DNA of 63,998 bases, counting the filler, from Jimgerdemannia flammicorona (lineage: Eukaryota): NCBI GenBank assembly GCA_003990765.1. It is 3 parts of 3 records of this genome, joined end to end, with 100 filler letters (N's around TTAATTAATTAA, not from the genome) between each part and the next. Parts side by side here need not be neighbours in the genome. Positions count along the whole stretch, not along the records: positions 1 to 21,466 come from RBNJ01001444.1; 2 more parts are not named here. One strand, 5' to 3'. The notes under the pieces are model-generated. The model was not told the DNA's origin and made no database searches. It worked only from the letters and a program-made list of their open reading frames with translations. This document shows positions 255-5,074 of this stretch, in pieces (positions within the stretch are counted from its first letter, which is position 1; every line of letters begins with the position of its first letter). A program made the translations under genes and the position numbers.

Positions 255-1648
255 ATGTCAACCCCACAAGTCATCTGGTTCAACGTCAATCTTGAAGGGC
301 GTGAGCCAGCCAAAATTCAAGGGATACCCCTCCACGACATTGCGGATTTGCGAGAGGCCATTAAGAACAAGAAGCCTACCGATATCACCTGCGATGCTGA
401 TGCCTTGCGTCTTGAAATCACTGACCCTGTTGGAAAGAACGTTGTGAAGCTTGACGAGGATGAATTTGACAAACATGGAGCTTTTGAAAACCTCATAAGC
501 TTGTATGCTATTGGCAAGAAAAATCCCATCCTTGTGCATCTGCCTGGTAAGTTATTAGCCCGCTTGGAGGAACGGTCTGTGAACTCGGTGAGGACGCGTA
601 AAAAGAACGTATAACAAAAAGCGGTCCGAGAGTTTTGTAAATTATCTGGTTGCCGACTTCCATGCATGCATCCATTTCTCAACCGCTCTTGTCTCGCTCT
701 CCGTCACTGACAGCGGCTCCCCAAGGTATTGTTATTCTCCTTGCTTTTTCAATCCTTGCTTTGACGATTCCTCGATCTCATTTCTTTCTTGACCGATCAA
801 TTTTACTCTTAGCACCAGCCCCAGGTACGTTACTCGCCTGTTCTTCTCGTCGTTATTTCCTCGTTCCGACTTTTTTACAAGTTGAGGTTGCTTTCCTTTT
901 CCAGCTGGTGGGCATTCGTGTTCTTGTTCAATTTCACATCATTCCGAAAATGGTAGCATCGAAGGTAATGTCGTCGGATGAAGGACAGCGGTAATAAGAT
1001 AAGGATAACGGACAATTACAGGGTTGGCATATCATAATTGTCTACATATAACTGCCAATTTATTCTTAGTGATTATTCGCCTATGTTTGGAGAAGAACGT
1101 CATCGTTGATGAACCGGGCGCCGTCGCTGAGCCTAAGAAACAGAACACAACGCGTACGTCAGAACTGTGCGAACCATCGTTTTGCAGCTAATGGCACTCA
1201 TGGTCTGTTTAAGTCTGCTAATTTTTCATTCACCTTCAGGAGGTAGGACCGGCGAAGTAGGAGCCGGCATTGCAGCTAAGCTTCTGAAGCAGAATACGAC
1301 CTTGCATGGGTTGAATATGTCTGATATGCCAGAACCAAGCGTACAATCGCTTTTTGGGGACGTTATCGTAGCCCGGCTTCTGCAGCAAAGCATGACCTCG
1401 CATGATTTAAATCTGTCCGGTATGTCAGAACTAAGCGAACTATTGTTTTCGAAAAAATCGAGCTCGTTATATGCCTGCCTACTAATCTCCTATCATGTTC
1501 AGGAAAAAGAGTTGGCGATAGCGCAGCGCAAGCTCTCGTCCAATTTTTGAAGAAGAATACAAACGTGACGAAGCTCGATCTTAGCAGTGCGTCAAAATTA
1601 TCGTTTGTAGCTGCTGGATTGGAGCAAGCTTATGATCCGGATATCCTC

Positions 1649-1703
<55 letters not shown>

Positions 1704-1709
1704 CTTTTT

Positions 1710-1747
<38 letters not shown>

Positions 1748-4700
1748 TCATATTCAGAAAACCACATTGGCATTCTGTTCATAAGTGTATTAGCCGAGTT
1801 TCTGAAGCAAAACACGACCTTGATGGAACTGAATCTCAGCGGTATGTCAAGACTTCGTGAAGTGTTATTTACAGTTGCCTAATGGAATCAATCTCAGCAT
1901 ATGCGCGTTCCTCAATTTCAGAGAACAACATCGGTGACGAGGAGGCCGGGGCCCTTGCTACGTTTCTGGAGCCAAACACCATCTTGACTAAGCTAAATCT
2001 CTCCTGTATGTCAGAACTCTATGAAGCATTATGTGCAGCTGCATAACAGAATGAAGCTAATGATATATGCGTGTTCGCTCATCTCCTGTTTATTGTAAGT
2101 GAATGTTATTGGCCACGAAGGAGCATGCGCCATAGCTGAGTCTCTCAAGCAGAACACAACCTTGGCCGAGCTCAATCTCCAAAGTATGTCAGAACTGTGC
2201 GAAACATTGTATGCAACTTGTGTGATGGAATCAAACTCACAATCTGTGCATGTTCGGTCATCTCCTGTTCATTTTTAGGGAATAGCATTGGCGACGAGGG
2301 GGCACGCGTCCTAGCCGTGTCTCTGAAGCAGAACACGACCTTGACCAAGTTGAATCTCCAACGTATGTCAGAACTGTGTGTGAGGCATTGTGTGCAGCTG
2401 CGTGTTGAAATCAAAAGAGTGTTTGCTCATCCCATCTTCATGTTCAGGTAACAATATCGGCAACGAGGGGGAACGCGCTCTATCTGAGTCTCTAAAGCAG
2501 AACACAAACTTGACGAAGTTGAATCTCTCCCGTATGTCAGAACAATATGAAGCATTGTTTATAGTTATGTGATGCAATCAATTCACTATCTGTGAATTTT
2601 TGCTTTTCCCTTGTTATGTTCAGAAAACCGCACTGGCCACAAGGGGGCCCGCATTCTAGCTGAGTTATTGAAGCAGAACACGACCTTGGTCAAGCTAAAT
2701 CTTTCATGTATGTCAGAACTGCATGACGCATTGCATGCATTTGCGCCATAAAATCGACTCACGATCTGCTTGTGTTCGCTCTTTCCTTGCGCCCTTTCAG
2801 GGAAGGACATTGGCCATAAGGGCGCATGCGCCCTAGCCGAGTCTCTGAAGCAGAACATGACCTTGACCAAGCTGAAACTTGGCTGTATGTCAGAACTGTG
2901 TGAGACGTATCCAGCTGCATTTTGGAATCAAGCTCACATTCTGTGTGTTCTTCCTCAATCCCTATTTTAATTTAAGGGAATGGCCTTGGCTACGAGGGGA
3001 CAAGTGCCCTAATCGAGTCTCTGGGGCAGAACACGACATTGACCAGGCTGAATATCGAAGGTATGTCGGAACTGTGTGAAGCATTGTGTGTAGCTGCGCA
3101 ATTGAATCAAGCTTACAATATTATTATTAGGGAATAGCATTGGCAACGAGGGGGCACGCGCCATAGCTGAATCTCTGAAGCAGAACACGGCCTTGACCGA
3201 GCTCAATCTCCGCGGTATGTCAGAATAGTGTAAAACCTTGTAAATGGAATGAATCTCACAAACTGTGCGTGTTAGCTCATCCCCTGTTTATTTTTAAGAG
3301 AACAACATTGGCGATGAGGGGGCACGCGCCATAGCTGAATCTCTGAAGCAGAACACGGCCTTGACCGAGCTCAATCTCTGCGGTATGTCAGAATAGTGTA
3401 AAACCTTGTAAATGTAATGAATCTCACAAACTGTGCATGTTAGCTCATCCCCTGTTTATTTTTAAGAGAACAACATTGGCGACGAGGGAGCACGCGCCCT
3501 AGCCGAACCTTTGAGACAGAACGCGACCTTGACTGAATTTAGTCTCCAAAGTATGTCAGAACTGTGCAAAGCGCTGTATGACTCATGTTATATTAGTGTT
3601 CGCTCACTCCCTCCATTTTAAGACGACAGCATGGGCGACAAGGAGGGCCCGCGCTCCAGCAGGGTCTATCAGAACATGACCTTGACCAAGCTGAATCTCG
3701 AAAGTATGTCAGAACTCTGAAGCATTTTGCGCAACTGTATAATGGAATCAAGCTCATCCTCTGTACATGTTCTTTCATCTCCTGTACATATCCAGAAAAC
3801 CGCATCAGCAAAGAGGGGGCACGCGCCCTAGCAGAGTCTCTGAAGCAGAACTCGACCTTCACCGAGCTGAATCTCAAAGGTATATCAGAAATGACTGAAG
3901 CATTGTGTATAGCTGCGTAATGGGCTTCTGCTCATAATTTGTACATGTTTGCTCACCCTGTTCTTGCCCAGACAACCACATTGGCGACGAGGGGGCATGC
4001 GCCCTAGCTGAGTCACTGAAGCAGAACACGACCTTCCCTAAGCTGAATCTCTATGGTATGTCGTAACTGGGTAGCTGTATCGTTGAATCAAGCTCACAAT
4101 CCGTGAATGATTGCTTCATGTTCAGACAACCGCATTGGCCGTGAGGGTGCACGCAACATAGCCGAGTCTCTGAAGCAGATCACGACCTTCGCTGAGCTGA
4201 ATCTCTATGGTATGTGAAGCATTGCACGCAACAGCATCATAGAGTCAAGCTCACAATCTGTATATACATGTTTCCTCTTCCCTTTTAAGGAAATAACATT
4301 GGCCCTGAGATGGCACGTTCTCTAGCCGAATCTCTGAAGCCAAACATGACCTTGACCAAGTTGAATCTCAAAAGTATGCCAGAACTGTGTGAAGTATTGT
4401 GTGTGACTGCATGACAGAATCAAGCTAACGATCTGTATGTGTTCGCTCATCCTGTTCATTTTAAAGAGAGTAATATTGGCGAGAAAGGGACACTCGCCCT
4501 AGCTGAGTCTCTGAAGCAGAACACAACATTGACTGTGCTGATTCTCTCCTGTAAGTCAGAACTCTGTAAAGTGTTGTGTGTAGCTTCGTGACGCGATTAA
4601 ACCAATGATCTGTATTCACTCATCTGTTCATTTTAAGGGAATTTCATTGGCAATGAAGGAGGATGCGCCTTAGCTGGGTCTCTGAAACAGAACTCGACCT

Positions 4701-5074
4701 TGACCAATCTGGGTCTTGAGTGTATGTGAGGCATTGTGTAATTGTGTACAGATGCATAAGGAAATCAAGCTCATGATATATGCTTATTTCCTCATTCACT
4801 GTTCATTTTTAGGTTGTCGAATTGGCCATGTGGGGGTACTCGAACTAATTGAATCTCTGAAGTCGAACACAACCTTGACTGAGCTGAATCTCCAAGGTAT
4901 GTCAGAACTGTGTCAAATATCATATAGCTGGGCAATGGAATCAAGCTCACAATATTTTTAAATATTTTAAGTGAATGACATTGACGATGAGGGGAAACGC
5001 GTCCTAGCCAAGGCTCTCGAGAGGAACACAACCTCGACCACAAAGTATGTCAAAGCATCGTGTGTGGCAATATG
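255..5074 (+). CDS. Multi-exon gene: Crinkler (CRN)-like N-terminal ubiquitin-like domain + ~24 RI-like (NLRC3/RanGAP-type) 28-aa leucine-rich repeats
   Basis: Exon 1 (255-546) encodes MSTPQVIWF...DIADLREAIKNKKPTDITCDADALRL...NPILVHLP, matching the CRN N-terminal pattern. GT-AG exons then follow at 714-725, 813-824, 905-964, 1070-1153, 1240-1419, 1503-1586, 1758-1841, 1922-2005, 2100-2183, 2279-2362, 2448-2531, 2624-2707, 2801-2884, 2977-3060, 3131-3214, 3299-3382, 3467-3550, 3623-3703, 3796-3879, 3972-4055, 4126-4209, 4290-4373, 4467-4550, 4638-4721, 4813-4896 and 4972 onward. Repeat consensus NxIGDEGARALAESLKQNTTLTKLNL. I found no stop in the spliced frame. The 3' end is uncertain: read-through stop near 5074 or a decayed last exon near 5132. 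Confidence 0.85.

Follow-up and report, generated by a model that had tools for sequence, protein, structure and literature searches.

The window analysed here, a 63,998-nucleotide (nt) stretch of the genome of Jimgerdemannia flammicorona, a soil fungus of the Endogonales (GCA_003990765.1), consists of joined contigs, with N spacers containing a 12-nt linker at 21467-21566 and 43033-43132, and the gene under study lies in the first contig only (1-21466). This gene is probably an expressed, single-copy chimera, in which a Crinkler-type header has come to stand on the leucine-rich repeat (LRR) arm of a kinase-LRR family, the arm being made variable by selection together with gene conversion or crossover. 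It runs from an ATG at 255 to a stop codon in the exon starting at 5132, and is thereby wider than the span 1503-4896 given in a preliminary description, which had rightly recognised the repeat array and had overlooked that a Crinkler-type header is present and the kinase gone. Within 1503-4896, 20 exons bounded by AG and GT are found, 19 of them of 84 nt and one (3623-3703) of 81 nt, all in phase 1 as first described, and the frame across the spliced 20-exon array is open. Each exon encodes one 28-residue repeat of the ribonuclease inhibitor (RI) type (Pfam LRR_6 match), with the beta-alpha unit of 28 residues that defines RI-like LRRs; the repeat profile matches RI and related chains, its best sequence match of solved structure being a GALA protein, and strand-helix repeats are present in the model of P0002, a protein of Endogone. 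The homology of the array introns, also claimed earlier, holds (p-distance 0.35 among 16 window introns), and these introns measure 70-95 nt, bar one of 171 nt with a poly-T run. This longer intron (1587-1757) is stretched by about 96 nt of poly-T, has a length that is a multiple of three and would be stop-free if retained.

The gene model of 800 amino acids (aa) contains a header, a linker and LRRs only, with GT-AG introns throughout and an intact frame of 800 codons. Transcript evidence comes from the contigs of two runs, X1 and X2, which were taken as RNA on the strength of their GT..AG joints; such contigs drop rare forms, and the joints discussed below are the 15 listed of 63. In what follows, L numbers designate loci of the same genome and P numbers database proteins. 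The parts of the gene are these:

255-546, plus strand: exon 1, Crinkler-like header of 97 aa, ending in ILVHLP and in a phase-1 donor (PF20147 match below the cut-off; RNA contigs in X1 and X2)
714-725, plus strand: 12-nt micro-exon 1, linker on the Crinkler side (present in an X2 contig as the letters that separate 546 from 955; resembles the header relatives L095 and L079)
813-824, plus strand: 12-nt micro-exon 2 (same X2 contig as micro-exon 1; AG/GT ends)
825-904, plus strand: chimeric intron, its putative fusion point lying somewhere from about 825 to 895 (resemblance to the intron after the kinase in L056, L029 and L032 starts near 895-898)
905-964, plus strand: putative 60-nt in-frame exon of X1 (depth arithmetic on X1 bins)
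965-1069, plus strand: intron apparently spliced in about half of the X1 molecules and kept in the others, as it is in the X2 contig (X1 contigs, depth arithmetic)
1070-1153, plus strand: degenerate 84-nt LRR exon, with its acceptor upstream of that of the paralogs (joint 1153>1240 in X1 and X2; alignment with four paralogs)
1240-1419, plus strand: 180-nt exon with two LRR-like halves and an exonised intron remnant between them (two profile matches; single RNA piece in X1 and X2)
1503-4896, plus strand: 20 single-LRR exons with homologous introns (sequence, profile matches, RNA joints)
3131-3382, plus strand: exons 10 and 11 with their introns, a recent duplication (period-168 tandem repeat with 90% matches; exons 93% identical)
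3623-3703, plus strand: 81-nt exon with a compensated frame shift in the helix segment (read by eye beside a canonical exon; spliced in X2)
4972-5044, plus strand: 73-nt last LRR exon, shifting the frame into the terminal exon (joints 4893>4969 and 5044>5132 in X1 and X2)
5132-5236, plus strand: terminal exon with three further codons, a stop and 3' untranslated sequence (RNA joints)

The exon 4972-5044 had been considered a fatal frameshift; this was dropped, both runs splicing it to 5132, which merely ends the protein. As for exon 1240-1419, it carries a 3-nt deletion at 1351 in X2 and looks like a duplicated LRR unit that lost its donor, its shortened intron being read as coding; the changes between samples are mostly non-synonymous there.

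Probable parentage of the header and of the repeat arm

The family to which the repeat arm belongs was sampled with one exon-plus-intron pair as query; 40 of 421 candidates were scored, and 341 matches were obtained from these. Exon statistics rest on the window and 39 fetched loci, matches below 60 bits or without AG/GT being dropped. With one LRR per symmetric exon, 483 of the 538 well-scoring exons of these 40 loci are 84 nt long. Upstream of the paralogous arrays, Pfam detects a protein kinase in L056 and L033, and NB-ARC, Sel1 and ankyrin domains are present in L030. No trace of the N-terminal protein kinase of the kinase-LRR family was found in the window gene, where the header takes its place. 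From about 895 onward, the window DNA matches the intron just after the kinase exon of L056, L029 and L032, and positions 898-1250 share 72% identity with the region after the kinase in L056, where the kinase was confirmed by Pfam. Further downstream, the exons at 1503 and 1758 are the N-cap exons common to the kinase-LRR paralogs and are matched best by the same three loci, the exon at 1758 being 85% identical to its counterpart in L029, 82% in L032 and 80% in L031; the pre-LRR intron is also shared with these paralogs. Since a protein of Endogone (P0002, 769 aa) likewise combines a kinase with LRRs, the kinase-LRR layout is taken as the older form. Two acceptors used by the paralogs, near 945 and near 1089, are lost in the window, which would explain the use of cryptic splice sites at the seam.

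Regarding the header, exon 1 matches the Pfam family PF20147 with an E value of 4e-4 and 21.5 bits, under the cut-off of 24.6, and ends in ILVHLP, a loose match to the HVLxxP-type motif of which I92, V94 and P97 are invariant in 12 aligned headers. The exon has 20 relatives in the same genome (36-46% identity), whose recognisable partner domains are a fungal protein kinase or HhH, and 11 of 48 aligned relatives match PF20147 and no other family. Micro-exon 1 and its intron resemble two of these relatives, L095 and L079, and no LRR locus. Besides, three database proteins (P0034, P0035 and P0037) carry a canonical Crinkler domain followed by a second copy of the divergent header, P0037 having a fungal protein kinase as well.

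Judged from these homologies, an intron-to-intron recombination in phase 1 has probably swapped the kinase for the header: the Crinkler-type header exon and the micro-exons would have been set before the LRR arm, with deletion of the kinase. The 5' end of the gene is single-copy, and no second fusion of this kind was encountered. Downstream of the header relatives, an LRR array was seen in none of 19 fetched loci, five of which had less than 2 kb downstream, and two partial matches of 12 bits were the only signal; conversely, the header profile matched none of the 39 other LRR loci, 11 of which had less than 0.5 kb upstream. Among database relatives, none of the 25 scanned out of 66 shows the fusion, a weak negative as most of the 66 fall short of 200 aa and, like P0001, may represent truncated models, and a search with the header for longer proteins returned P0001 alone among 81 candidates. 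This public model (174 aa, labelled Jimgerdemannia flammicorona) is identical to the window gene over the first 97 residues and has no LRR; a large fungal LRR family is mis-annotated, P0001 leaving out every LRR.

Other members of the family have features of their own. L029 (373-8962) has 49 LRR exon matches and is strongly homogenised, the nearest relative of 41 of 44 exons being another exon of L029 itself; blocks of several exons recur in it, and a frame-breaking 82-nt exon lies at 6931. In L034, L040, L052 and L059, a different front end with the cysteine motif CDNCDKSRKxCDKNEPC lies upstream of the arrays, possibly marking a zinc-cluster-LRR subfamily; in L052 it is followed by an ankyrin-like frame.

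Selection and probable exchange at the exon junctions

The strong variability of residues at the junctions, put forward in the preliminary description, is borne out, all ten tetrapeptides it quoted being present, and so is the selection it proposed to look for site by site. Among 24 loci with at least 8 exons, non-synonymous divergence per site within a locus (pN) reaches 0.65 for the final complete codon and 0.63 for the codon split by the intron, against a synonymous value (pS) of 0.27 and an intron p-distance of 0.18, and pN of codons 27-28 exceeds pS in 24 of 24 loci. The scaffold of the window array has a pN/pS of 0.44, compared to 1.67 (1.30-2.13) for codon 27 and 1.56 (1.24-1.89) for the split codon. 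Comparison of X2 with the window points in the same direction for the scaffold, the changes listed for the middle portion of canonical exons being 9 synonymous and 2 non-synonymous (P = 2e-4), as against 1 and 7 in the seam exons (1070-1419; Fisher P = 0.005); these counts exclude a synonymous and a non-synonymous change read at joints, a change in exon 1 and an untranslated one. Statistically, diversifying selection thus acts on the split codon and on the complete codon before it in each exon, and purifying selection on the LRR scaffold. In the P0002 model (pLDDT, the predicted local distance difference test, about 60-77 in the LRR part and 45.9 for the whole model), the positions of codons 27-28 fall at the end of the beta-strand and in the following loop, so that the variable codons would sit at the beta-strand end and the start of that loop, on the predicted binding face.

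The way in which this diversity arises can be followed in the last four nucleotides of the exons. The 412 tails fall into 72 types, compared to 116 if the four positions were independent, and alleles are widely shared, GAAG occurring in 22 loci and TCCT in 20. There are 238 pairs of units whose 60 flanking nt differ at no more than 2 sites; the tails agree fully in 72 of these pairs and disagree at every one of the four bases in 69. Positions -4 to -1 have a diversity of 0.56-0.65, position -5 one of 0.20 and intron positions +7 to +20 one of 0.09-0.33, a drop that makes a regional hypermutation around donors unlikely. In the young arrays of L012, L034, L035 and L037, whose introns are 3-6% apart as compared to 35% in the window array (pS 0.43), tail diversity per base is 0.36-0.76. 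A tail is weakly linked (r about 0.11) to the core of its exon and to the intron after it, which indicates that exchange does not mainly involve whole exons; nor could the whole exon be preferred over the tail-intron-head junction as the inherited unit, within limited power, the tail correlating with the head of the same exon at r = 0.03 and with the next head at r = 0.05, and 20-nt windows giving r = 0.11 both ways. Since a few shared tail alleles lie between near-identical flanks, short-patch gene conversion or unequal crossover, combined with diversifying selection that would maintain the differences between tails, is the mechanism that we infer for the tail diversity. Over generations, both processes would re-deal a few 4-nt alleles among homologous exon-plus-intron units, within and between loci. 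Tail alleles provide a precise handle for telling conversion from splicing in population and long-read data, and the locus narrows down the mechanism by which the family diversifies.

The preliminary description had named exon skipping or unequal recombination as the source of new junction residues. The part that stands is the gain and loss of units in frame, visible in repeated blocks of the paralogs and in the tandem pair 3138-3561 of the window. Programmed skipping, by which the array would act as a receptor diversified by splicing with many in-frame isoforms carrying new junction residues, as reported for the brown-algal ROCO genes, is in our view quite unlikely. The symmetric exons would indeed keep any skip in frame, and single-exon skips give a stop in 0 of 18 cases in the window and in 7 of 390 in the family, where 12.1 would be expected, a difference that is not significant by rough estimate. 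Moreover, 48 of the 63 joints lie outside the listed set, contigs lose rare forms, and in X2 an exon-10-type tail stands before both exon 11 and exon 12, which could reflect a skip or deletion of exon 11 or simply identical tails. Nevertheless, all 15 listed joints, 12 of them in both runs and 3 in X2 only, link adjacent exons in genomic order, and the long contigs keep that order as well; at these joints X1 and X2 have the same exon order, exon 11 being ambiguous in X2. Non-adjacent pairings in the window give stops in 16 of 171 cases, as against 11% expected at random, and over all distances the skip junctions of the family show no depletion, with 128 stops in 4258 (3.0%) compared to 13.3 in 441 (3.0%) expected. 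The only alternative splicing indicated is that of the header-LRR seam. It had also been noted that five exons end in T and that none is followed by AA, AG or GA; this is correct (P = 0.042 under random order), and in the 40 loci stops arise at 0 of 125 native T-ending junctions, versus 13.3 expected. As evidence for skipping, these stop-free junctions were dropped: they reflect coding selection, needed in any translated gene, and are no sign of skipping. Conversion and crossover would account for the diversity, with routine exon skipping not being its source.

Splicing at the seam, possible function and neighbouring sequence

One X2 contig spans the header, both micro-exons and LRR exons, in favour of the chimera. 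Its stretch 955-1153 is entered at the alternative acceptor 957 and meets a stop at 992-994, giving a product of 117 aa. In X1, depth inference suggests two routes: exon 905-964 would either be spliced to 1070 (depth about 7), opening the 800-aa frame, or be followed by intron retention (depth 7.1), ending after 130 aa; the arithmetic predicts depths of 4.44 and 16.59 where 4.44 and 16.6 were observed. Missing X1 cover at 2432-2618 was not used as evidence, and back-joints with foreign letters were read as transcripts of paralogs. Splicing of the seam would thus be unsettled, with one route to the 800-aa protein and others stopping at 117 or 130 aa.

Several points weigh against the chimera as proposed. 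The assignment of the header to the Crinkler type rests on a weak match, its Pfam score lying under the cut-off. The main X2 contig encodes 117 aa before its stop, and the in-frame header-LRR form of X1 is derived from depth arithmetic, the junction 964>1070 being absent from the listed joints. With 40 of 421 LRR candidates scored and short flanks at some loci, the uniqueness of the fusion is a lower-bound statement. As to the variability of the arm, the pN/pS values are uncorrected, come from non-independent pairs and ignore recombination, and the table of differences between X2 and the window leaves out most sites near exon ends. Finally, the window array is old and not homogenised, as seen from its pS of 0.43 and from the nearest neighbour lying in the same locus for 3 of 19 exons only, and the conversion signal comes mainly from the paralogs.

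Some of these observations could also be read as decay, the chimera being an accident of a birth-and-death family that inherited its variable residues from the kinase-LRR parent and gained no function by the fusion. The two lost acceptors, the stop-containing forms (the X2 contig and about half of X1), the 7 non-synonymous changes against 1 in the seam exons, the repeat frame-shifted internally and the single-copy 5' end all agree with this rather unlikely alternative. Against it stand the intact 800-codon frame with GT-AG introns throughout, spliced in both samples, and the purifying selection between samples on the canonical LRR exons, which could equally reflect an LRR-only protein from an internal ATG. 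Under the selected chimera that we prefer, the gene would encode an intracellular variable binder uncoupled from the kinase, the header possibly acting as an adaptor or targeting module.

It is very unlikely, in our estimation, that the gene is a symbiosis effector whose Crinkler header exports the variable LRR binder to the cells of a plant or bacterial partner. The best structural match of the repeat profile, GALA, is a protein which we take to be a bacterial LRR effector. This match is a generic repeat likeness, however, and the LRR arm descends from the kinase-LRR family. A role in delivery has been ascribed to Crinkler headers (PMC5289972), and RiCRN1 functions in the development of arbuscules (PMC6131194), whereas most CRN-like proteins of Rhizophagus are described in the latter source as having no signal peptide and may act inside the fungus. 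A broader proposal, tentative and on balance unlikely, is that the Endogonales possess a modular LRR kit, i.e., an exon-per-repeat arm with a re-dealt 4-nt donor cassette, swapped through phase-1 introns onto kinase, NB-ARC and other front ends; the present gene would then be a selected, translated capture by a Crinkler header, delivered to partner cells or guarding against Crinkler-type toxins.

Elsewhere in the window, an 82-nt tandem repeat occurs twice (6544-6855 and 14734-15168), each time with similar frames beside it, around a gypsy-like gag/pol region on the minus strand (about 8500-13900), and together they probably form one long terminal repeat (LTR) retrotransposon. In the second contig, 21888-23731 holds an intron-split conserved gene, presumably of the Noc3-type nucleolar class, and 33066-42827 contains what we take, from their motifs, to be a frame resembling dUTPase and at least 2 copies of gypsy-like pol fragments that bear a chromodomain.

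Comparison with known systems

The genus Jimgerdemannia is putatively ectomycorrhizal, as stated in a portion of PMC12574304, in which the words Crinkler, CRN, leucine and LRR do not occur. A limited search found no literature on LRR genes of Jimgerdemannia or on Crinkler-LRR fusions, the CR-protein survey of Zhang et al. 2016, which may list LRR-bearing CR proteins, being known only via PMC5289972. What the locus adds is a Crinkler-LRR domain swap with RNA support and a mechanism based on 4-nt alleles; the kinds of parts are already known. As the swap joins an effector-type to a receptor-type family, with both parents in one genome and an unfinished splice seam, the birth of an architecture can be traced.

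The closest system is that of the Endogonales kinase-LRR genes, represented by the genome paralogs and, at the protein level, by P0002 with the same kinase-plus-LRR layout. The paralogs share the 84-nt phase-1 LRR exons, the N-cap exons and the pre-LRR intron, whereas the window gene has a Crinkler-type header instead of the kinase and an unsettled seam splicing. Crinkler and CR proteins likewise have an N-terminal header that ends in an HVLxxP-like motif (PMC5289972, PMC6131194, in part), regarded in the former as a recombination hotspot for new C-termini. In the window gene, the swap would have occurred inside a phase-1 intron and the C-terminus is an LRR arm: only LRR exons follow the header, no enzymatic CR-toxin domain was found in the gene model, and for this reason the gene is not filed as a Crinkler toxin. 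The term LRR is absent from the accessible text of PMC6131194, and that of PMC5289972 uses it for plant receptors only.

Animal NLRC-type proteins such as NLRC5 have RI-like arms whose exon boundaries follow the repeats (PMC3848420, excerpts), as here; the window gene lacks NACHT, and hypervariable junction codons are a result for the fungal family only. Finally, two systems resemble the variable arm in how it diversifies. In the accessible parts of PMC3341825 and PMC11378527, brown-algal ROCO genes have one LRR per exon of equal length and a few positively selected sites on the binding face; their exons are of 72 nt and phase 2, compared to 84 nt and phase 1 here, and the window gene has no Roc-COR GTPase module in its 800-aa model and no LRR splice variants among the listed joints, opposite-strand LRR exons being absent from all of the 40 loci. 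Fungal NWD/NLR genes of the HET-D/HET-R type show repeat exchange within and between genes and a few positively selected positions per repeat (PMC4986451, in part), and the conversion and selection pattern of the window family fits that described for the Podospora NWD genes. The strong internal conservation of repeats that goes with such exchange is seen in the paralogs L012, L034, L035 and L037, and not in the window array. The fungal NLR survey reported in the same text found no LRRs, whereas here the repeats are LRRs, each on its own exon, and the window gene has no NOD, that is, no NACHT or NB-ARC domain, the latter being present in the paralog L030. By analogy, the gene would work like the LRR arms of brown-algal ROCO proteins and the repeats of fungal NWD proteins, and it belongs to neither.

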